Positions 11,510 to 36,847 are shown, counted from the stretch's first letter. The stretch: DNA of 64,000 nt from Candidatus Lustribacter sp. (GCA_965277805.1 OZ255842.1:384001-448000); one strand, 5' to 3'. Notes: generated from the sequence alone by a model not told the origin. A program made the numbers and translations.

Positions 11510-11586
11510 TGTCATCCCGAGCTTGTCGAGGGACCGCCTCAATCGACTTCTCTGAGCGGCGGCCCCTCGACAAGCTCGGGGTGGCA
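11510..11586. repeat. REP-like palindromic element
   Basis: 23-nt arms TGTCATCCCGAGCTTGTCGAGGG and CCCTCGACAAGCTCGGGGTGGCA are complementary with two G-U positions. Confidence 0.75.
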
Positions 11587-11601
11587 TGATATTGTCGGCC
11601 C

Positions 11602-11685
11602 ATGTCCGCAGTTCGCGCGATTATGACCACGACGATTATGACCATTCCCCTCGGCGAGGGCGAGTGTCGGTCGGTGCTGGTCTAG
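11602..11685 (+). CDS. Ile/Met/Thr-rich attenuator leader peptide MSAVRAIMTTTIMTIPLGEGECRSVLV
   Basis: 27-codon ORF with an IMTTTIMTI run, upstream of hom. Preceded by TG-a-TATTGT 6 nt before the ATG. Confidence 0.85.
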   Translation: MSAVRAIMTTTIMTIPLGEGECRSVLV

Positions 11686-11709
11686 ACGCGAACCACGGCA
11701 CCAGATGAC

Positions 11710-11741
11710 ACGGCCCTCGCCAGTAGGCGGGGGCCGTTTTT
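11710..11741 (+). terminator. hom attenuator intrinsic terminator
   Basis: ACGGCCCTCGCC-agta-GGCGGGGGCCGT followed by a T run, located before the hom RBS. Confidence 0.85.
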
Positions 11742-11754
11742 ATTGGAGGATCCC

Positions 11755-12915
11755 ATGGCTGCCCTCTCTCTCCACGAACTCCAAGAACGCTCGAGCGTGC
11801 CGGCTCCCGCGCGTCCCGGCGTCGGCCTGCTCGGCTGCGGGGTCGTGGGCGCCGCGGTGGCGCGCCGCCTGCTGCTGGCCCACCCCGGCCTCTTGCGGGC
11901 CGTGGCCGTGCGCGATCCGCACAAGGCGCGCGACGTCGATTGGGAAGCGTGGGACGGCGATCCGTTTGCGGTGGTCGACGATCCGAACGTGAGCGTCGTC
12001 GTGGAGTGCATCGGCGGCGTGCGGCTGGCGCGCGAACTCGTGCTGCGCGCGATCGCACACGGCAAGGACGTCGTCACCGCCAACAAGGAGCTCATCGCGC
12101 AAGACGGTCCGTGGCTGCGCGCGTTCGCCGCTCGCACCGGCGCGACGCTGCACTACGAGGCGTCGGTGGGCGGCGCGATCCCGATCTTACGCGCGTTGGA
12201 AACCTCGCTCGCCGACGAGCCGATTCTCGAAGTCGGCGGCGTGGTCAACGGCACGACGAACTTCGTGCTCTCGCAGATGGAGAACGGCGCGAGTTACGCG
12301 GCGGCACTGGCACAAGCGCAGCAGCGCGGCTTCGCCGAAGCGGATCCGCGCAACGATGTCGACGGCATCGATGCCGCGCACAAACTCGCGATCCTCGCGA
12401 CGCTGGCGTTTCATCGCCCGGTCGCCTCGGCCGAACTCTCGCGTTGCGGCATCACTGCGATCCTGCCCGAGGACGTTGCGCTTGCGGCCGAACGCGGCTG
12501 GCGCCTCAAGCTCGTCGCGTTGGCGCGGCGCGCGAACGACGGCATCGAAGCGGGCGTCACGCCGGCGTTCGTCGCCCGCAGCCATGCCTTCGCCCGGCCC
12601 AACGATGCCGAGAACGTCGTGCGCGTGGTCGGTGTAGATTCGGGCGCGCTCGAATTCTTCGGCCTCGGCGCAGGCGGCGCGGCATCGGCGTCTAGCGTCG
12701 TCGGCGACATCCTCAGCGCGATCGACCTGCGCGCGCGCGGCATCACCGCTCACCGCGGCGTGGTCGGCGATCCGCAACGCGCCGGTGCGCTGCGTTTGCC
12801 GGTCGTGTTGCGCTCGGCGGACAGCGTGCGCATCAGCGAACCGCACGCGCTCGACGATCTCGCAACCCTCGCGGCGCAACCCGGCGTGCTCGCCGCGATC
12901 CCGCTGCTCGTTTAG
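11755..12915 (+). CDS. hom: Homoserine dehydrogenase
   Basis: GCGVVG, VVTANK, YEASVGGAIP, NGTTNF and GFAEADP..DVDGIDAAHK motifs. GGAGG RBS. Confidence 0.93.
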   Translation: MAALSLHELQERSSVPAPARPGVGLLGCGVVGAAVARRLLLAHPGLLRAVAVRDPHKARDVDWEAWDGDPFAVVDDPNVSVVVECIGGVRLARELVLRAIAHGKDVVTANKELIAQDGPWLRAFAARTGATLHYEASVGGAIPILRALETSLADEPILEVGGVVNGTTNFVLSQMENGASYAAALAQAQQRGFAEADPRNDVDGIDAAHKLAILATLAFHRPVASAELSRCGITAILPEDVALAAERGWRLKLVALARRANDGIEAGVTPAFVARSHAFARPNDAENVVRVVGVDSGALEFFGLGAGGAASASSVVGDILSAIDLRARGITAHRGVVGDPQRAGALRLPVVLRSADSVRISEPHALDDLATLAAQPGVLAAIPLLV

Positions 12916-27679: not shown

Positions 27680-29121
27680 TGCCCGAACTGCAAGATCTCA
27701 CCCCGCGCCAGATCGTCGCGGAACTCGATAAGTACATCGTCGGACAGGCGAAGGCCAAGCGCGCCGTAGCGATCGCGCTGCGCAACCGCTTCCGGCGCGA
27801 ACAACTGCCCGAAGAACTGCGCCGCGAAGTGATTCCGAAGAACATCCTGATGATCGGGCCGACCGGCGTCGGCAAGACCGAGATCGCCCGCCGGCTGGCA
27901 TCGCTCGCCGGCGCGCCGTTCGTCAAGGTCGAGGCGACGAAGTACACCGAGGTCGGCTACGTCGGCCGCGACGTCGAGTCGATGGTGCGCGACCTGGCCG
28001 AAGCCGCGATCCGGATGGTGAAAGAAGAACGCCGCGGCGACGTCAAGGAAGCGGCCGAACATGCCGCGATCGAACGGATCATCGACGTGCTGCATCCGGA
28101 GACGCGCGCGCCGCAAGCATCGCAGAACAACCCGTTTGCCGCGACGCTCGGATCCATCTTCGGCAACTCGTTCGGCCAACAGGCGAACCAGCCGCAGCAA
28201 ACGCCGCAGCCGGCGGCGCAGCCGGCGCCGCCACACGAATCGGAACGCATCCGCACCGAAGCGCGGGCCGACATCGAGCGCGGCTTCTACGACGTGCGCT
28301 TGATCGAGATCGAGGTCGAAGAGACGCCGAATCTGCCGATGGGCATGATGGGCGGCGGCGACGGCGCGGGCATGGGCGGCGCCGGCGACATGAGCGAGAT
28401 GCTCTCCGGCCTCTTACCGAAGAAGAAAGCGCAGAAGCGCGTCACGGTGGCCGATGCGCGCCGCGTCTTCGCGCAAGAAGAAGAAGCGAAGCTGATCGAC
28501 ATGGACGCCGTCAAGCGCGAGGCGCTGCGGCGGGCCGGTGAACGCGGGATCATCTTCATCGACGAGATCGACAAGATCGCCACGCGCGAAGGCCGCGGCG
28601 TCGACGTCTCACGCGAAGGCGTGCAGCGCGACATCCTCCCGATCGTCGAAGGCAGCACCGTCAACACGAAGTACGGGCCGCTGGCGACCGACCACGTGCT
28701 ATTCGTCGCGGCCGGCGCGTTCCACATGAGCAAGCCGTCCGATCTGATTCCGGAACTTCAGGGACGCTTCCCGATTCGCGTCGAGCTCGACAGCCTGACC
28801 GCGGCCGATTTCGAAACGATCCTCACCCAACCGAAGAACGCGTTGATGACGCAGTACACTGCGCTGCTCGCGGCCGACGGCGTGAAGCTCGACATTCGTC
28901 CCGAGGGCATCGCGGCAATCGCGCGCATCGCGACCGAAGTGAACGAACGCGACGAAAACATCGGCGCGCGCCGTTTGCACACGGTGCTCGAACGCGTCTT
29001 CGAAGAGATCGGTTATGCCGCACCGGAAGTCGCGGAAACCGTCGTCATCGATGCTGCGTACGTGTCCGATCGTCTGGGCGAAATCGCCGCCAGCGCCGAT
29101 CTCTCGAACTTCATCCTGTAG
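27679..29121 (+). CDS. hslU: ATP-dependent protease ATPase HslU
   Basis: GPTGVGKT, GYVG, DEIDK and NIGARRL motifs. Confidence 0.97.
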   Translation: MPELQDLTPRQIVAELDKYIVGQAKAKRAVAIALRNRFRREQLPEELRREVIPKNILMIGPTGVGKTEIARRLASLAGAPFVKVEATKYTEVGYVGRDVESMVRDLAEAAIRMVKEERRGDVKEAAEHAAIERIIDVLHPETRAPQASQNNPFAATLGSIFGNSFGQQANQPQQTPQPAAQPAPPHESERIRTEARADIERGFYDVRLIEIEVEETPNLPMGMMGGGDGAGMGGAGDMSEMLSGLLPKKKAQKRVTVADARRVFAQEEEAKLIDMDAVKREALRRAGERGIIFIDEIDKIATREGRGVDVSREGVQRDILPIVEGSTVNTKYGPLATDHVLFVAAGAFHMSKPSDLIPELQGRFPIRVELDSLTAADFETILTQPKNALMTQYTALLAADGVKLDIRPEGIAAIARIATEVNERDENIGARRLHTVLERVFEEIGYAAPEVAETVVIDAAYVSDRLGEIAASADLSNFIL

Positions 29122-29229
29122 CGGTCATCGTAAGGCGTCCCTAAGCGCGGGGTTCGTGTTGCCTCATCGAGTTCGCAAGTGCATCATGCGGGGAATAGCC
29201 AGGCACTACGTCCATCTGGAGGATTCATC

Positions 29230-29493
29230 ATGGCTGACCGCATCTCGCGCGGCGAGATCATCTCGCTGCTCGCCGGCATTCCCGCCGCCGTAGCCGTAAC
29301 CACGACCATCGCTTCCGCCGCCGACGATTCGAGCGGCACCAAGGCTCAGTACAAGTACCAGAGCAAGCCCGGACCCAAGGGTCAGGTCTGTGGCGGCTGC
29401 GCCCTCTTCAAGGCTCCCGCAGCGTGCCAACTCGTCAAGGGCAAGATCAGCCCCAAAGGCTACTGCATCGCCTACGCCCCCAAAGCGCACTAG
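29230..29493 (+). CDS. High-potential iron-sulfur protein (HiPIP, Iro-like)
   Basis: Signal region, then YQ...C-x2-C-x2-F-x5-C-x2-V.G.I...GYC (four Cys). GGAGG RBS. Confidence 0.85.
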   Translation: MADRISRGEIISLLAGIPAAVAVTTTIASAADDSSGTKAQYKYQSKPGPKGQVCGGCALFKAPAACQLVKGKISPKGYCIAYAPKAH

Positions 29494-29507
29494 GATTCAC
29501 GGTCCAA

Positions 29508-29537
29508 TTGACAGCCCTAGGGGCGGCGTGATACAAC
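29508..29537 (+). promoter_or_regulatory. Sigma70 promoter of the aro operon leader
   Basis: TTGACA(29508), then TG-a-TACAAC(29532), 8 nt before the leader ATG. Confidence 0.6.
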
Positions 29538-29545
29538 CCAACCTG

Positions 29546-29623
29546 ATGCTCGTGAACGGTTTTGGGTATTTTGGCTTTTTTAGCTGGGCGATTTCGCGCC
29601 GGCGAGCCGACTCTTTGCCGTAA
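29546..29623 (+). CDS. Aromatic attenuator leader peptide MLVNGFGYFGFFSWAISRRRADSLP
   Basis: Four Phe (all TTT), one Tyr and one Trp within nine codons, upstream of the aro operon. Confidence 0.85.
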   Translation: MLVNGFGYFGFFSWAISRRRADSLP

Positions 29624-29651
29624 CGTCCACGACCAGGACGACAACTGCAAG

Positions 29652-29681
29652 AGCCCCTCGCCGGCGCGAGGGGCTTTTCTT
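29652..29681 (+). terminator. aro attenuator intrinsic terminator
   Basis: AGCCCCTCGC-cggc-GCGAGGGGCT followed by TTTCTT. Confidence 0.88.
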
Positions 29682-29717
29682 ATTCCGGTCACGCTTGACC
29701 GATGTGATGGAGACGCG

Positions 29718-31505
29718 ATGACGACCGCCCAGACGCAAGCCCCGACTCCCGCTACCCCTGCCCTGACCATGACCGCTGCCTTCGAGGGAATCGAGGGCGC
29801 GTACTCACACGTGGTGCTCGAAGCCTATGCGGGCCGGCGCGGCGTGACGTTCCAGCCGTTGGGCTGCCCGACGTTCCGCGCGGTCGCCCACGCCGTGCTC
29901 GGCGGCCGGGCCGACGTCGGTTTGCTGCCGATCGACAACGCGATCGCCGGTACGATCCGCGAAGGCTACGACATCCTGGCCGAATACGAGCTCGACCCGC
30001 TGGCGGAAATCACGCTGCGGCTCGAGCATCGCCTCGTCGGCCTGCCGGGTGCCACGCTCGAGGGCGTGCGCGAGATCGAGTCGCACGCGATCGTCCTGGC
30101 CGAGTGCGGCCGTTTTCTCGCCTCGCTGCCCGACGTGAAACGCGTTCCTGTCGGCGATACCGCGATCGCGGCCCGCAATGTGGCCGCGGCCAAGGATCCG
30201 ACGCACGCGGCGATCTGCTCCAAAGAAGCCGCGGAGCGCTACGGCCTCGTCGAACTGGCCGGTTCGATCGCCGATCATCCCGATAACACCACACGCTTCT
30301 TGCTCTTCCGCGCCCCGGTTGCGGCCGGGGTGGCCGCCGAGTTCGAACCGGCTGCGGCGGGTACCGACCGCAAGACCTCGCTCGTCTTCTCCGTCGCCGA
30401 CAAACCCGGCGCGCTCGCGCGTTCGCTCGATGCGTTCGGCAAGCACGGCCTCAACGTCTCGAAGCTCGACTCGAAGTCGCGGCTGGGCACGAGCGAGTTC
30501 GCGTTCTATGCCGACATCGACGGCGACGTGCGCGAAGAGCGTTTCGCCGACGCGCTCCACGATCTCAAGGAATACACCTCGTCGCTGCACATCATCGGTT
30601 CCTACGATGCCGGCACGGCGCCGGCACGCGTGCGCCGGCCCATCGACGTGGTGATCGACAACGCGCCGGCCGTCGTGCCGAGCGTGAGCAAGCAGAAGCA
30701 GAACTTCCCGAAGGTCACCCGCGAACCGGGCCAGCCGCGCTCCAAAGTGCGCGTCGGCAACGTCGTGCTCGAAGACGGGACGTTCATCATCGCCGCCGGA
30801 CCGTGCAGCGTCGAATCGCGCGAGCAGCTCTTCGCGGTCGCGCACGAGATCAAAGATCACGGCGCGGTCATGATGCGCGGCGGCGCGTTCAAGCCTCGCA
30901 CCTCGCCATACGCCTTCCAAGGCATGGGCTGGGAAGGCTTGGCACTGCTGGCCGAAGCCGGCCGCGAAACCGGCATGCCGATCGTCAGCGAAGTGATGAG
31001 CATCGACCAAGTCGAGCGCATGGGCCAGTCGGTCGATATGTATCAGATCGGCGCGCGCAACATGCAGAACTTCGATTTGCTCAAGGCCGTCGGCAAGACG
31101 CAGATTCCGGTGCTGCTCAAACGCGGGATGTCGGCGAGCCTCGACGAGCTGCTCAGCGCAGCCGAATACATCCTCTCCGAAGGCAACCCGGACGTCGTGC
31201 TCTGCGAGCGCGGCATCCGCACGTTCGAAACGGCGACGCGCAACACGCTCGATCTCTCGGCGGTCGCGGTGCTGCGCGAGAAGACGCATCTGCCGATCAT
31301 GGTCGATCCGTCGCACGGCGTCGGCGTGCGGCGCTGGATCCGCCCGCTGTGCCGCGCGGCCAAGGCCGTCGGCGCGAACGGCATCCTGATCGAAGTGCAT
31401 CCGAATCCGGCCGTCGCGAAGAGCGACGCGGAACAGGCGCTCACGTTCCAGGATTACGAAGACATCGTCAACGATCTGGCGCAGATCCCGTTCATTCAGG
31501 ACTAG
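29718..31505 (+). CDS. pheA-aroF: Fusion: prephenate dehydratase + ACT + type I-beta DAHP synthase
   Basis: GAYSH, PIDN, DNTTRF and KPGAL motifs, then AGPCSVE, KPRTSPY, IGARNMQN, CERGIRTF and DPSHG. Confidence 0.92.
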   Translation: MTTAQTQAPTPATPALTMTAAFEGIEGAYSHVVLEAYAGRRGVTFQPLGCPTFRAVAHAVLGGRADVGLLPIDNAIAGTIREGYDILAEYELDPLAEITLRLEHRLVGLPGATLEGVREIESHAIVLAECGRFLASLPDVKRVPVGDTAIAARNVAAAKDPTHAAICSKEAAERYGLVELAGSIADHPDNTTRFLLFRAPVAAGVAAEFEPAAAGTDRKTSLVFSVADKPGALARSLDAFGKHGLNVSKLDSKSRLGTSEFAFYADIDGDVREERFADALHDLKEYTSSLHIIGSYDAGTAPARVRRPIDVVIDNAPAVVPSVSKQKQNFPKVTREPGQPRSKVRVGNVVLEDGTFIIAAGPCSVESREQLFAVAHEIKDHGAVMMRGGAFKPRTSPYAFQGMGWEGLALLAEAGRETGMPIVSEVMSIDQVERMGQSVDMYQIGARNMQNFDLLKAVGKTQIPVLLKRGMSASLDELLSAAEYILSEGNPDVVLCERGIRTFETATRNTLDLSAVAVLREKTHLPIMVDPSHGVGVRRWIRPLCRAAKAVGANGILIEVHPNPAVAKSDAEQALTFQDYEDIVNDLAQIPFIQD

Positions 31506-31515
31506 CGCTTCCGCG

Positions 31516-32811
31516 ATGATGAACACGCAAGCCCGGAGCGAGACGGTCGCTCCGGCGCGCGTACTCGGGCACCAAGCGCCGCACATTCCGGGCGACAAAT
31601 CGATCTCGCACCGGGCGGTGATTTTCGCCGCGATGGCCGAGGGCGAATCGCACATCACCAACGTCGCTCCGGGCGAAGATGTCGCATCGTCGATGCGCTG
31701 CGTCGCCGCGCTCGGTGCGAGCGTGCAGCGCGACGGCCTCAACGTGCGCATTCGCGGTGGCGCGTGGCGCGATCCGGCAGAGCCGCTCGACTGCGGCAAT
31801 TCCGGGACGACGATGCGCTTCCTGATCGGTGCGCTCGCGGGCCGCGGGATTGCCGCGACCCTGATCGGCGATGAATCGCTCAGCCGCCGGCCGATGCTGC
31901 GGGTGGCCGAACCGATGCGCGAACTCGGCGCGGTCGTCGATACTGCCGCGGGCGGCACCGCGCCAGTGCACGCGCGCGGCGGTCATCCGCTGCACGGCGG
32001 GCATATCGCGATGAAGGTTGCGAGCGCACAGCTCGCGAGTTCGCTGATGCTGGCGGCCACCGGCGCGCACGGGCGCGTGACGATTTCCGGCGCGGGCACG
32101 GCGCGCGATCACACAGCGAAGATGCTGCCGCACTTCGGCGTTGCGGTACAGCGCGACGGTGACGACATCGTCGTCGAGGGCCCGCAGCGCTTCCGCGCGG
32201 CGGATTTCCACGTGCCCGGCGATCCGTCGGCAGCCGCGTTTTGGCTCGCGGCGGCAGCCATCGTGCCCGGCGCGCGCATCGTCGTGGAGAACGTCAACCT
32301 CAATCCGACGCGCCTGGGCTTCGTCGACGCGCTCGAACGGATGGGCGCCGGCGTCACGATCACCGTGACCGCGGAAGAACCCGAACCGATGGGCCATATC
32401 GAGGTGAGCGCGCGCCCGCTGCGCGCGATCGCGATCGAGGAGCCCGAAGTTCCGGCGATTCTCGACGAGTTGCCGCTGCTCGGCATCGTGGCCGCCTACG
32501 CGACCGGCACGACGACCGTGCGCGGCGCGCGCGAGCTGCGCGTGAAGGAGAGCGATCGCATCGCAGTGCTCGTCAAGGGCCTGCGTGCGCTCGGCGGTTC
32601 GATCGCCGAACTCGACGACGGCTTCGATGTGACCGGTGGGGCGCCGCTGCACGGCGCGACGGTCGAGAGCGGTGGCGATCATCGTTTGGCGATGGCCTTC
32701 GCGATCGCGGCCCTAGGCGCGAACGCGCCGGTAACGATTGAGGATTCCGGCTGCGTCGCGATCTCGCATCCGTCGTTCTTCGCAGATTTGGCGGCAGTAT
32801 GTCGGGGCTAG
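31516..32811 (+). CDS. aroA: EPSP synthase
   Basis: PGDKSISHR, DCGNSGTT, ASAQ, RVKESDR and DHR motifs. Confidence 0.96.
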   Translation: MMNTQARSETVAPARVLGHQAPHIPGDKSISHRAVIFAAMAEGESHITNVAPGEDVASSMRCVAALGASVQRDGLNVRIRGGAWRDPAEPLDCGNSGTTMRFLIGALAGRGIAATLIGDESLSRRPMLRVAEPMRELGAVVDTAAGGTAPVHARGGHPLHGGHIAMKVASAQLASSLMLAATGAHGRVTISGAGTARDHTAKMLPHFGVAVQRDGDDIVVEGPQRFRAADFHVPGDPSAAAFWLAAAAIVPGARIVVENVNLNPTRLGFVDALERMGAGVTITVTAEEPEPMGHIEVSARPLRAIAIEEPEVPAILDELPLLGIVAAYATGTTTVRGARELRVKESDRIAVLVKGLRALGGSIAELDDGFDVTGGAPLHGATVESGGDHRLAMAFAIAALGANAPVTIEDSGCVAISHPSFFADLAAVCRG

Positions 32812-33641
32812 TGCCGGCCGTTTCCGCGGGTCCGTGGACGAAACGCTTCGCCGTAGTCGGTCAGCCGATCGCACACTCGCGCTCGCCCGAAATTTTCGCC
32901 GCGCTCTCGCGCCAGTCGGGTATCCCGCTCTCGTACGAGCGCCTCGAACTGACGCCGGACGATTTCGCCTTCGCGTTTTCGGAAGCGCGCGAAAACTTCG
33001 ACGGCTGGAACGTTACGGCGCCGCACAAAGAACGCGTGCTGGCCAAGGCCGACGTTGTGAGCGATGACGCGCGCTTGGTTGGTGCAGCGAACGTGGTCAC
33101 CTTTCGCGATGGCGAGGCCTACGCGGCGAACACCGACGTCGGCGGCGTCATCTCGCTCTTGCGCAAGAGCAACATCGATCCGGCCGGTAGCGTCGTGACG
33201 CTGCTCGGCGCCGGCGGCGCAGCGCGCGCGACGATCGTTGCGCTCGTGCAGATGGGCGCGAAACGGATCGTGGTCTCGAATCGCACGCTCGAACGCGTCC
33301 GGGCGCTGGTCGACGATTTGCGCGTCGCTGCCGGAACGACCGAACTCGCGATCGGCGACCCGGTAGCATCGCAGCTCGTGATCAACGCGACCAGCAACGG
33401 CGCGGCCGTCGCCGATGCCGTAAGTGCGTGCGTGCCCGGCGGCTGGTGCGTGGATCTGCAGTACCGTCCCGCCGATACGCCGTTCGTGCTGGCCGCGCGC
33501 GCTGCCGGCCGCAACGCTGTCAGCGGCGCGCACATGCTGGTCGCGCAAGCGATCGCGACGTTCTATCTCTGGTACGGCGACGACGTGCGTTTCGGACGCG
33601 CCGCCGAGGCCGAACTCACTGCTCTCGTGGAGGCTCCCTAG
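32799..33641 (+). CDS. aroE: Shikimate dehydrogenase
   Basis: HSRSP, NVTAPHK, NTD and GAGGAA motifs. Confidence 0.93.
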   Translation: MSGLVPAVSAGPWTKRFAVVGQPIAHSRSPEIFAALSRQSGIPLSYERLELTPDDFAFAFSEARENFDGWNVTAPHKERVLAKADVVSDDARLVGAANVVTFRDGEAYAANTDVGGVISLLRKSNIDPAGSVVTLLGAGGAARATIVALVQMGAKRIVVSNRTLERVRALVDDLRVAAGTTELAIGDPVASQLVINATSNGAAVADAVSACVPGGWCVDLQYRPADTPFVLAARAAGRNAVSGAHMLVAQAIATFYLWYGDDVRFGRAAEAELTALVEAP

Positions 33642-33644
33642 ATC

Positions 33645-34817
33645 ATGTCGCGGTTGCGATATCTCACCGCCGGTGAATCCCACGGTCCCGCGCTGACCGG
33701 GATCATGGAAGGGTTGCCCGCCGGTTTGCCGATCACGGTCGAAGAGATCCATACCGACGGCCGGCGGCGCATGATGGGCTACGGCCGCGGCAACCGCATG
33801 AAGATCGAGACCGACGAGGTGAAGATTCTCGCCGGCGTGCGCCGCGGCGAAACGCTGGGCAGCCCGGTCTCGCTCTACATCGAGAACCGCGATCACCAGA
33901 AGTGGCTCGAGATCATGACCGCGGAACCGCGCGAGGGCGAGGCGGCGCGCGCGGTCTACATTCCGCGGCCGGGTCATACCGACCGCGTCGGCGGTTTGAA
34001 GTACGACCGCGCCGACATGCGCGACATCCTCGAGCGCGCCAGCGCGCGCGAAACGGCGATGCGCGTGGCGCTCGGCGCGCTGGCGCGCAAGTTGCTGAGC
34101 GAACTCGGCGTCTCGATCGCGAGCCGCGTCGTGCGCATCGGCGAGGTGGTCGACGAAACGCCGCTCGACGCCGACATCGCGACGCTCAACGCCCGCGTCG
34201 ACCAATCACCCGTGCGCGTGCTCGATAGCGGCGCGGCGGAACGTATCATGAAAAACATCGATGCATCGAAGGAAGCCGGCGACACGCTCGGCGGCGTGTT
34301 CGAAGTCGTGGCCGGCGGCGTGCCGATCGGCCTTGGGTCGCACGCTCAATGGGATCGCCGTCTCGACGGCCGCGTCGGCGAAGCGTTCCTCGCGCTCAAC
34401 GCGATGAAGGGCGTCGAATTGGGCCTCGGTTTCCGCGGTTCCGCGCTGCCCGGTTCGGCCGTGCACGATTCGTATTTTCCCGGCGAGAACGGGACGCTCA
34501 CGCGTTACGGCAGCAACCGCGCAGGCGGGATCGAGGGCGGCATCAGCACCGGTCAGCCGATCGTCGTGCGCGTCGCAATGAAGCCGATCTCGACGCTGAT
34601 GAAACCGTTGCCGTCGGTCGATCTGCGCACGGGCGAAGCGACCAATGCCTACATCGAGCGTAGCGACGTGTGCGCCGTGCCGGCCGCGGCAGTGATCGGC
34701 GAATCGCTGCTCGCGCTCGTACTGGCCGACGCCCTGCTCGAGACCTTTCCCGGCGACACAATGAATTTGCTGCGTGACTATGTCGGCGCGTGGCGGGAGC
34801 GCATTCATGCCCGTTGA
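33645..34817 (+). CDS. aroC: Chorismate synthase
   Basis: TAGESHG, PRPGH, ERASARET and RSDVCAVP motifs. Confidence 0.97.
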   Translation: MSRLRYLTAGESHGPALTGIMEGLPAGLPITVEEIHTDGRRRMMGYGRGNRMKIETDEVKILAGVRRGETLGSPVSLYIENRDHQKWLEIMTAEPREGEAARAVYIPRPGHTDRVGGLKYDRADMRDILERASARETAMRVALGALARKLLSELGVSIASRVVRIGEVVDETPLDADIATLNARVDQSPVRVLDSGAAERIMKNIDASKEAGDTLGGVFEVVAGGVPIGLGSHAQWDRRLDGRVGEAFLALNAMKGVELGLGFRGSALPGSAVHDSYFPGENGTLTRYGSNRAGGIEGGISTGQPIVVRVAMKPISTLMKPLPSVDLRTGEATNAYIERSDVCAVPAAAVIGESLLALVLADALLETFPGDTMNLLRDYVGAWRERIHAR

Positions 34818-35343
34818 TCCCAACCAGCACATCCTATTCTGCGGCACCGCCGGTTCGGGGAAGACGACGGTCGGCGCGCTCGTCGCGCGCGCGCTCGGGC
34901 GTGAGTTCGTCGACATCGATCGGATGGTCGAGCGCGCGACCGGCCGCAGCGTGCAAGCGATCTTCGCCAAAGAGGGTGAAGCGGCGTTCCGCGCGCACGA
35001 GCGGGCGGCGGTCGTCCGCGCGCTCGGAGCCGCCAAACCGGGTGTGATCTCTCTCGGCGGCGGCGCGCTCGAAAACGATGAAACGTTCGCCGACGCGCGG
35101 CGCCACACGCTGGTCTGGCTCAAGGCGACGGTTACGACGCTCGCCTCGCGCCTCTCGGGCAACGGCGAGCGTCCGCTCTTGGCCGGCGATCCGCTGGCGA
35201 AGCTGCACGAACTTGCGGCCGCGCGCGAGCCGCGCTATCGTCAAGCGCACGTGATCGTCGATGCGTCGCTCGCGCCCAAGGGCGTTGCGGCCTCGGTACT
35301 GGAAGCGCTGCGCGCGAACGAACTCGTCGGTGACCGCGCGTGA
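34807..35343 (+). CDS. aroK: Shikimate kinase
   Basis: GTAGSGKTT, GEAAFR, GGG and RPL motifs. Confidence 0.93.
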   Translation: MPVDPNQHILFCGTAGSGKTTVGALVARALGREFVDIDRMVERATGRSVQAIFAKEGEAAFRAHERAAVVRALGAAKPGVISLGGGALENDETFADARRHTLVWLKATVTTLASRLSGNGERPLLAGDPLAKLHELAAAREPRYRQAHVIVDASLAPKGVAASVLEALRANELVGDRA

Positions 35344-36422
35344 TCTCAAACGAAGTGCAGCGCATCCGCGTCGAGCTCGGCGACGAGCGTTCGTACGACG
35401 TCGTCATCGGCGCAGGCGCGATCGACGAAATCACCGCGATTGACGCCCGCACCGTGGTCGTGCTCTACGACATCGCGGTGGAACCGCTGGCGCAACAAGT
35501 GCTCACGGCCTTCGGCTCGCGCGTGCTGCTGACGCGCGGTTTGGTCGGCGGCGAAGACGTGAAAACACTGGAAATGGCGGGCGAACTCTACGACTGGCTC
35601 GCTGAAGTTCACGTCGATCGTGAGACCGTGCTGATCGCCATCGGCGGCGGTACCGTCACCGATCTCGGCGGATTCATCGCCGCGACGTACTTACGCGGCC
35701 TGCGCTGGTGCGCCGTACCGACCACGCTATTGGCCGCGGTCGATGCGGCCGTGGGCGGCAAGACCGCGATCAACCTCGGCGCGGGGAAGAACCTCGTCGG
35801 CGTGTTCCATCATCCCTCGCTCGTCGCGATCGAACCGGAGGCGTTCACCACGCTCGATCCGCGCGATATCGCGGCCGGCATGGGCGAAGCGCTGAAGACC
35901 GCGCTCGTCGCCGATCCCGAACTGTTTGAGTTCCTCGAACGCGAGATGCCGCGCGCGCTGGCCGCAGATCCCGCCGTGCTCGCAACGACGGTCGCGCACT
36001 GCGTCGCGGCGAAGGCGCGCGTCGTTGCCGGTGACGAGCGCGAGACCGACGATAGCGGCGCCGGCGGCCGGGCGATCCTGAACTTCGGCCACACGGTCGG
36101 GCACGCGCTCGAGAAGACGTGCGGCTACGGCGCGCTACGTCACGGCGAAGCGATCGTGCTCGGCATGCGCGCCGCACTCGCGCTCTCGCGCGAACGCGGT
36201 CTCGCACCGGCGCAAGCCGAACGCATCACGGCCCTGGTCAACGCAATCCCGGCGCCGCATCCGGATGCCGCGCCGGATGCGATCATCAAGGCGACCGCGT
36301 CGGACAAGAAACGCAAGGCGGGCAAGGTTCGCTTCATCCTGATCCGCGACGTCGCCGATCCCTACATCGTCGACGACGTGACCGAGGAGTCGGTGCGCGC
36401 GGCGTTGACCGCGATCGCATGA
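35340..36422 (+). CDS. aroB: 3-dehydroquinate synthase
   Basis: GGGTVTD, PTTLLA, GGKT, LNFGHT and HGEA motifs. Confidence 0.96.
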   Translation: MISNEVQRIRVELGDERSYDVVIGAGAIDEITAIDARTVVVLYDIAVEPLAQQVLTAFGSRVLLTRGLVGGEDVKTLEMAGELYDWLAEVHVDRETVLIAIGGGTVTDLGGFIAATYLRGLRWCAVPTTLLAAVDAAVGGKTAINLGAGKNLVGVFHHPSLVAIEPEAFTTLDPRDIAAGMGEALKTALVADPELFEFLEREMPRALAADPAVLATTVAHCVAAKARVVAGDERETDDSGAGGRAILNFGHTVGHALEKTCGYGALRHGEAIVLGMRAALALSRERGLAPAQAERITALVNAIPAPHPDAAPDAIIKATASDKKRKAGKVRFILIRDVADPYIVDDVTEESVRAALTAIA

Positions 36423-36847
36423 CGATCCTCGTCGTTCACGGGCCGAACCTCAACTTGCTCGGCGAACGCGAACCCGGCGTCTACGGCACGCTCACGCTCG
36501 ACGAACTGAACGCGAAGATTCGCGAACACGGCCGCGCCAAAGGCTGCGAGATCCGCACGTACCAGTCCAACCACGAAGGACGCCTGCTCGACGCACTCCA
36601 GCGCGCGCGCCGCTGGGCGAGCGGCATCGTCATCAACCCCGGCGCATACGGCCACACGTCGTACGCGTTGCGCGACTGCATCGCCGGCATCAACACCCCT
36701 ACGGTCGAAGTCCACCTCAGCGACGTCGAAGCCCGCGAACCGTTCCGCAAAATCTCCACCATCGCCGACGTCTGCATCGCCAAAATCAGCGGCCTCGGCC
36801 CCCAATCCTACCTAAATGCCATCGACCTACTACTATCGCGTTTATAA
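36419..36847 (+). CDS. aroQ: Type II 3-dehydroquinate dehydratase
   Basis: GPNLNLLGEREP..YG, QSNHEG, INPG and EVHLS motifs. Confidence 0.96.
   Translation: MTILVVHGPNLNLLGEREPGVYGTLTLDELNAKIREHGRAKGCEIRTYQSNHEGRLLDALQRARRWASGIVINPGAYGHTSYALRDCIAGINTPTVEVHLSDVEAREPFRKISTIADVCIAKISGLGPQSYLNAIDLLLSRL

Follow-up and report, generated by a model that had tools for sequence, protein, structure and literature searches.

A putative leader-peptide attenuator with aromatic control codons upstream of the complete shikimate operon in Candidatus Lustribacter sp.

We analysed a window, i.e. a stretch of 64,000 nt, of a Candidatus Lustribacter genome that consists of a single contig of 5.53 Mb with 64% G+C and belongs to the uncultured phylum Eremiobacterota/WPS-2. 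In this window, a compact element consisting of a promoter, a short ORF and a terminator lies directly 5' of a seven-gene operon, the genes of which are close-packed or overlapping and end at 36847 (Table 1). Pfam assignments show that the operon encodes every step from DAHP to chorismate, covering all seven shikimate steps, together with prephenate dehydratase (PDT), and thus bear out the original prediction that the leader stands in front of the entire shikimate pathway. The first gene, with a Shine-Dalgarno sequence GGAG at 29709-12, encodes a protein of 595 residues in which PDT, an ACT domain and DAHP synthase are fused. It is the sole DAHP_synth_1 match in the genome, which is 95% complete, and no DAHP_synth_2 match was found in the same genome. 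The Phe-binding ACT domain of the fused protein might also feed back on the pathway entry enzyme.

The T tract of the terminator and the start of the fused gene are separated by 34 nt, a gap too short for another promoter. Within this gap, a 17-nt stretch (29686-29702) holds the word TTGACC; this stretch is absent from L004, which belongs to the same genus, as well as from metatranscriptome contigs of relatives and is, therefore, dispensable and does not represent a conserved internal promoter. On the other side, the gene upstream of the element (29179-29493) has a sub-threshold match to high-potential iron-sulfur protein, HiPIP (20.6 bits, cut-off 22).

Table 1. Coordinates of the leader element, the operon downstream of it and further leaders in the same genome
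Feature	Coordinates	Strand	Remarks
Promoter	29508..29537	+	-35 TTGACA 29508-13; 18-nt spacer; extended -10 TG 29529-30; TACAAC 29532-37
Leader ORF, 25 codons + TAA (29621-23)	29546..29623	+	ATG at 29546; peptide MLVNGFGYFGFFSWAISRRRADSLP
Control codons F6, Y8, F9, F11, F12, W14	29561..29587	+	Read from the leader ORF
Segment 1 (anti-antiterminator strand)	29571..29590	+	Overlaps the control codons; pairs with segment 2 in the minimum-free-energy structure of the free RNA
Segment 2, antiterminator 5' strand (P1)	29594..29606	+	Perfect 13-nt complement of 29657-29669
Central hairpin P2/P3	29615..29650	+	Base CUCUUUGC / GCAAGAG; stacks under P1 in the antiterminator form
Intrinsic terminator	29649..29684	+	Stem 29649-61/29666-78; loop CGGC; T tract 29675-84
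Fused prephenate dehydratase + ACT domain + DAHP synthase (type I family)	29718..31505	+	Pfam PDT, ACT, DAHP_synth_1
aroA (EPSP synthase)	31516..32811	+	Pfam
aroE (shikimate dehydrogenase)	32799..33641	+	Pfam
aroC (chorismate synthase)	33645..34817	+	Pfam
aroK (shikimate kinase)	34774..35343	+	Pfam; true start may be further into the ORF
aroB (3-dehydroquinate synthase)	35340..36422	+	Pfam
aroQ (type II dehydroquinase)	36419..36847	+	ATG overlaps the aroB stop codon
Leader MSAVRAIMTTTIMTI…	11567-11743	+	In the window, before homoserine dehydrogenase (hom); TCGACA and extended -10 box
Leader ORF of this element	11602-11685	+	MSAVRAIMTTTIMTIPLGEGECRSVLV; Thr/Ile/Met-rich
Terminator of this element	11712-11743	+	Directly before the homoserine dehydrogenase gene
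Homoserine dehydrogenase gene	11755-12915	+	Pfam Homoserine_dh
Cys-rich leader MSFVNRCCCAE…	Outside the window		Before FAD-binding flavoprotein
Leader MSARRFVCTCPCCL…	Outside the window		Before NMT1-like substrate-binding protein
Leader MRCPCCCPVFEPTCC…	Outside the window		Before PAPS-reductase-like ORF (named by eye)
Leader VLNPVRLGLVVIVLVAL…	Outside the window		Before ketol-acid reductoisomerase (ilvC)
The four leaders outside the window (three poly-Cys, one Ile/Leu/Val)	G000:C1 2212365-2212530; 2212537-2212702; about 335364; 476715-476886	-; +; +; +

The promoter and the aromatic 25-codon ORF are both present where the original prediction had placed them. Reading of the sequence shows that the -10 box ends 8 nt before the ATG of the leader ORF and that this ORF has no Shine-Dalgarno sequence; the promoter geometry suggests that the transcript is probably leaderless or nearly so. 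Six aromatic codons fall within nine codons of the leader ORF, and the rarer synonymous codons are used throughout, with TTT for all four Phe residues and TAT for the single Tyr. As claimed beforehand, these codons are rare in the neighbourhood: ten neighbouring genes contain TTT 10 times versus TTC 81 times, and TAT 13 times versus TAC 47 times. The promoter and the terminator both went unlisted in a simple consensus scan; the -10 box ends in C, and the T tract is partly counted into the terminator stem. In the whole genome, 38 stop-free segments reach six aromatic residues in nine among 9.43 million 9-residue windows. Among the other aromatic-rich segments shorter than 100 codons, 5 of 13 were inspected; none of the five has a promoter/terminator context, and they lie within or antisense to coding sequence.

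A repeat search recovered the predicted antiterminator as two arms of 13 nt (29594-29606 and 29657-29669) that are 100% complementary, and a perfect inverted repeat of at least 13 nt did not arise in any of 1000 dinucleotide shuffles of the leader. The predicted terminator with its U tract is also present, and the sequence 3' of its arms is TTTTCTTATT. The leader folds with a z-score of -3.41, and none of 200 shuffles folds as well. In the minimum-free-energy fold, segment 1 pairs with segment 2 (GGCU/AGCC, GCUGG/CCGGC) while the terminator is formed at the same time; because these pairings appear together in this fold, the base-pairing statements of the original prediction, including the pairing of the control codons with segment 2, were correct. 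For the free RNA, the structure with segment 1:2 and the terminator has a predicted energy of -62.4 kcal/mol versus -57.0 kcal/mol for the forced antiterminator. The 5' strand of the central hairpin contains the stop codon of the leader. Folding of the alternative structures supports the proposed four-segment attenuator geometry.

To model a ribosome on the leader, all bases up to 11, 13 or 15 nt past the first base of the A-site codon were masked. In this model, the antiterminator is the minimum-free-energy fold for stalls at codons 5/6-13 only, while the terminator form is favoured for stalls at earlier codons, at W14, at later codons and at the stop codon. All Phe codons and the single Tyr codon lie inside the effective stall range; W14 lies one position past it because the start of segment 2 is masked by a ribosome stalled at this codon.

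To search for related elements, a covariance model was built from 13 leader regions upstream of homologues of the fused gene. The model matches 104 of 151 genomes sampled from the Eremiobacterota family, a tally that includes six unpublished genomes. In a sample of the phylum, at E <= 1e-6, it matches 37 of 71 genomes of the family and 0 of 79 genomes from 20 other families. The best 48 published matches comprise 42 aromatic leaders, five leaders of the Ile/Leu/Val type before acetolactate synthase and one Cys leader. Within the family, the fused gene is present both in the genus and in further genera (55-59% identity), each time preceded by an element of the same build but with a different aromatic-rich peptide; the PDT-ACT-DAHP synthase fusion occurs in many genera of this family. 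No leader was found upstream of the distant homologues outside the family in L041, L042 and L043; in the metagenome-assembled genomes L041 and L042, the fused gene carries a chorismate-mutase-like N-terminal extension.

The 42 aromatic leaders, one from each of 42 genomes of the one Eremiobacterota family, were aligned; since the relatives are kin, counts across them overstate independence. All 42 have the promoter (-35 TTGACA in 30, TTGACG in 7 and TTGACT in 5) with a spacer of 17-18 nt and a TG before the -10 box. The -10 box and the start codon are separated by 7-10 nt in 41 leaders and by 12 nt in one, and a Shine-Dalgarno-like word precedes the ORF in 1/42 only. The ORFs span 18-29 codons and start with ATG in 40 cases and with GTG in one; in the remaining leader (L091; G166:C62, element 1301-1484), a doubtful ATC stands in place of ATG/GTG. 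This copy may be dead, use a non-canonical leaderless start or contain a sequencing error. Over the first 20 codons, aromatic codons average 5.95 in frame versus 1.31 and 1.62 out of frame. Each leader has 4-8 of them, usually including Trp (in total TAT 74, TAC 62, TTT 55, TTC 19 and TGG 40); 26/42 leaders combine Phe, Tyr and Trp, 9/42 have Phe and Tyr only and 7/42 Tyr and Trp only.

The downstream gene is a PDT homologue in 38/42, at least 35 of which continue into a DAHP-synthase domain, and DAHP synthase alone in 2/42; in 1/42 another ORF precedes PDT, and in 1/42 the context is ambiguous. The box TTTGC(G/C)…(T)AA of the central hairpin is also conserved in the relatives. Because the element begins just 15 nt after the upstream gene, one could argue that the hairpin is the terminator of the HiPIP-like gene and that the ORF is spurious or an independent micropeptide. 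However, a conserved promoter lies between the upstream gene and the leader ORF, the genera differ in the gene upstream whereas the element is always found with an aro/pheA gene, and the peptide is conserved in aromatic composition only. Such a coincidence is, therefore, hardly credible. Three counts exclude a chance origin: those from the shuffled leaders, the scarcity of comparably aromatic segments in the genome and the conservation of the element in 42 related genomes.

Metatranscriptome contigs from four sets (at least 88% likeness) cover the leader region of close relatives, and one of them continues into the promoter sequence. Contigs of this kind are uninformative on starts, ends, strand and level and are thus neutral on the model; the 18 RNA-labelled runs hold just 5-8% of the sampled words.

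The original prediction had itself named conserved aromatic codons and stem covariation in relatives as a test, and both were observed. In the 32 more distant leaders, 93.2% of the terminator cells are paired and 32 cells are changed on both sides; none of 500 shuffles reaches the observed pairing, the double-change count or the covariation score. For the antiterminator, columns fixed from one reference gave 75.9% pairing in the 32 relatives versus 75.0% in shuffles (54/500 as high) and 19 double-change cells versus 9.8 (18/500 as high), in an alignment that is unable to hold the two registers and variable loops of this structure. We therefore used an alignment-free test in which the 40 nt after the aromatic cluster were folded against the terminator 5' arm and loop of either the cognate or a swapped leader. 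In 38 distinct leaders, the cognate duplex averaged -19.0 kcal/mol versus -16.6 kcal/mol for swapped pairs, and in 23 representatives less than 70% identical -19.65 versus -17.03 kcal/mol; the cognate mean was reached in 0/20000 permutations in either set, figures that kinship inflates. In the control region, i.e. the first 40 nt of the ORF, the 23 representatives gave -9.15 kcal/mol for cognate and -9.03 kcal/mol for swapped pairs. Thus, segment 2 matches the terminator of its own leader in a cognate-specific way. The duplex tests as well as the folding of 39 leaders described below omit L080 and L081, which have mismatched stems, and L091 with its doubtful start.

These observations also bear on the idea that the main effect of the leader is on translation of the first gene rather than on termination. 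Such an output would be in keeping with the likeness of the leaderless short-ORF architecture to the mycobacterial leaderless poly-Cys short ORFs, as these are described by Canestrari et al. (bioRxiv 10.1101/834739). By contrast, the covarying GC-rich hairpin and the T tract are kept in all relatives examined, and the GGAG sequence of the fused gene lies about 25 nt past the T tract and takes part in neither alternative fold. We consider an effect mainly on translation to be very improbable, and attenuation by termination remains our preferred reading.

In the equilibrium model, 35 of 39 leaders adopt the terminator form as free RNA, and the other four prefer the antiterminator even without a ribosome. 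A range of stall positions favouring the antiterminator exists in 27/39, and in 12/39 the antiterminator is never favoured over the full terminator in this ribosome-mask model. Antitermination only on stalls at control codons, as seen for the leader in the window, therefore holds in part of the relatives.

Which amino acids are sensed was then considered codon by codon. Sensing of Phe and Tyr is well supported by the model, in which the codons for both fall within the effective stall range, and this part of the predicted triple sensing stands. The Trp part fared less well and is doubtful in this genome: W14 lies outside the range, a genome of the same genus (L007/L048) has Arg at this position, and codons for Phe or Trp are missing in 16/42 leaders. 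Accordingly, the attenuator could be real and yet sense Phe only, or Phe and Tyr, with the Trp codon being incidental in this genome. A W14 stall masks the first bases of segment 2 such that the terminator is favoured at all three mask lengths, a Trp codon is absent from 9/42 relatives, and in the 39 leaders Trp codons are barely enriched at the stall positions favouring the antiterminator (21% of Trp codons versus 47% for Phe, 46% for Tyr and 16% for non-aromatic codons). A precedent for a silent codon comes from aroR of Corynebacterium glutamicum, which, according to a review, has a Tyr codon without a Tyr response (PMC11802643). On the other hand, at least one Trp codon is kept in 33/42 leaders. 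In a kinetic view, moreover, if the RNA is cut before the terminator 3' arm, a W14 stall leaves 9 bp of P1 together with P2/P3 at -34.4 kcal/mol; because this arrangement is allowed, Trp sensing is possible even though it is the weakest part of the reading.

Within this genome, no leader was seen before trpE, a chorismate-mutase-like ORF or tyrA. The trpE gene lies about 38 nt after rplQ (G000:C1 about 1285050-1285094), and the gap contains a GC-rich hairpin but no leader ORF. Anthranilate synthase thus seems to be without its own attenuator, and because trpE has no leader, a Trp input at the shikimate leader would make regulatory sense. Weighing both sides, we regard sensing of Phe, or of Phe and Tyr, without Trp as a serious contender with a chance somewhat below even. 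W14 sits at the 3' edge of the modelled stall range, and its contribution here is uncertain.

The covariance model and a pattern scan showed that the same scaffold is used repeatedly in this genome, with three Cys-rich leaders, one Ile/Leu/Val leader and one Thr/Ile/Met leader, the last of which lies within the window (Table 1). Two of the three poly-Cys leaders are divergent and stand back to back. The terminator pattern CCCTC(G)GC…GCG(A/G)GGG+TTT occurs at five sites in the genome, all five of which are putative leader-peptide attenuators. The parts that recur are the same -35/extended -10 promoter, a predicted leaderless start, an antiterminator strand of the GGCGAGGG type and a CCCTCGCC…GGCG(A/G)GGG terminator. 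In the complete relative G047, the scaffold occurs six more times: the leader is Ile-rich in one case, Leu/Val-rich in another and contains Cys codons in three, and the sixth is a second aromatic leader (MLSGAYFYRWYPRC…) that lies directly before aroA. In this relative (L102; G047:C1:3082527-3083921), the shikimate genes are arranged in two units, each with its own aromatic leader. This match between codon content and operon function on one scaffold is hard to explain except by ribosome sensing.

These leaders, therefore, have to be set against the notion that the leader works independently of translation, as a riboswitch, as a T-box or through the binding of a protein such as a TRAP-like factor, with the small ORF remaining unread. 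It is true that translation and the 5' end are deduced from the sequence and that a Shine-Dalgarno sequence is lacking. However, the aromatic enrichment is specific to the reading frame, the start and length of the ORF are kept in the 42 relatives while the nucleotides vary, and the same scaffold carries runs of Cys, Ile/Leu/Val and Thr/Ile/Met codons before matching operons. Similarly, a scan of 28500-30500 against Rfam at E up to 10 gave four weak unrelated matches and no leader or T-box family, the best one scoring 19.2 bits versus a gathering score of 50 and lying on the opposite strand. A translation-independent leader is therefore very unlikely, and we return to the ribosome-read attenuator.

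Classical attenuators of the four-segment type include pheL-pheA, trpL-trpEDCBA and the multivalent thr/ilv leaders of E. coli. In these leaders, the control codons lie in segment 1, segments 2:3 form the antiterminator and segments 3:4 the terminator, and the stop codon lets the terminating ribosome block segment 2; initiation is led by a Shine-Dalgarno sequence, and terminal branches are controlled. The element described here appears to follow the same logic as the enterobacterial trp, phe, thr and ilv leaders and to share their four-segment geometry; it differs in that the ORF appears leaderless, that segments 2 and 3 are separated by the P2/P3 hairpin and that the common pathway rather than a terminal branch would be controlled. 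The same scan of 28500-30500 gave no match of the element to the Rfam families Phe_leader and Trp_leader. The pheL and trpL leaders are summarised in the review PMC11802643.

The closest published relative is aroR-aroF of C. glutamicum, in which a leader with Phe-Tyr-Phe precedes aroF, encoding DAHP synthase, according to Mentz et al. 2013 (PMC4046766). The original prediction that an arrangement of this kind is undescribed was thus overstated. According to a review that cites Neshat et al. 2014 (J Biotechnol 190:55), the aroR leader reacts when Phe is limiting but does not respond to the availability of Tyr (PMC11802643); another article describes negative control by Phe and Tyr (PMC7356990). 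As far as these sources describe aroR, both systems have a short mixed-aromatic leader ORF before the shikimate entry enzyme, and stalling raises, or here would raise, transcription of the operon. In contrast to aroR, the leaders of the family studied here have 4-8 aromatic codons that usually include Trp, the operon comprises pheA and all seven steps of the shikimate pathway along with the only DAHP synthase detectable in the genome, and the phylum is Eremiobacterota; the resemblance noted here between the leader and aroR is one of function.

A second comparison is with the mycobacterial leaderless sensory short ORFs, which, according to Canestrari et al. (bioRxiv 10.1101/834739), act on translation by sequestering the ribosome-binding site downstream. 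As in that class, predicted leaderless sensory ORFs head biosynthetic operons, and several loci share one amino-acid signal, a 'ribulon' in the terms of that source; the genome studied here has three poly-Cys leaders of the same build. In contrast to the mycobacterial class as described there, the output element is an intrinsic terminator. A literature search for leader-peptide attenuation in Eremiobacterota found no mention of this phylum among the matches listed.

Taken together, we propose that the element is a ribosome-mediated, leader-peptide transcription attenuator that responds to starvation for aromatic amino acids, a reading to which we assign a probability of roughly 0.8 and in which the starvation response is deduced from the anatomy. 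RNA polymerase would start at, or within about 3 nt of, the leader AUG, as judged from the promoter geometry, and a ribosome would translate the 25-codon leader while the next 100 nt are transcribed. With ample charged Phe- and Tyr-tRNA, the ribosome would reach the stop codon and cover the antiterminator 5' strand together with the base of the central hairpin; once it is released, segment 1 would pair with segment 2, the terminator would form, and transcription would stop 34 nt before the first gene. A ribosome stalled at the Phe or Tyr codons (codons 6-12) would instead cover segment 1, and the freed segment 2 would pair with the terminator 5' arm and loop. The terminator would then be blocked, and the polymerase would read into pheA-aroF-aroA-aroE-aroC-aroK-aroB-aroQ. 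Because it would control readthrough into the operon, the switch would gate the only detectable DAHP synthase of the genome together with the whole common pathway.

Very probably, the element is an amino-acid sensor of the classical type that is read by the ribosome; this kind of switch is known and is found here in a little-studied phylum. It would provide a clean natural example of a whole seven-step pathway placed, along with its only entry enzyme, under a single switch, and the 42 natural variants with their differing mixtures of Phe, Tyr and Trp codons offer material for studying how a multivalent attenuator derives its specificity from codon identity and position. Ordinary gene calls miss the leader ORFs, which deserve annotation. 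Of greatest interest as an extension is the scaffold that these leaders share in re-coded form. We suggest tentatively, and at slightly less than an even chance, that one family-specific modular cassette has been copied and re-coded for at least four classes (aromatic, Cys, Ile/Leu/Val and Thr/Ile/Met), giving a network read by the ribosome in which the aromatic copy integrates the charging of Phe, Tyr and, in most genera, Trp tRNAs and gates the sole entry into the shikimate pathway. The finding as a whole points to classical ribosome-read attenuation as a main route by which amino-acid synthesis is controlled in Candidatus Eremiobacterota (WPS-2), an uncultured phylum of soil and peat.
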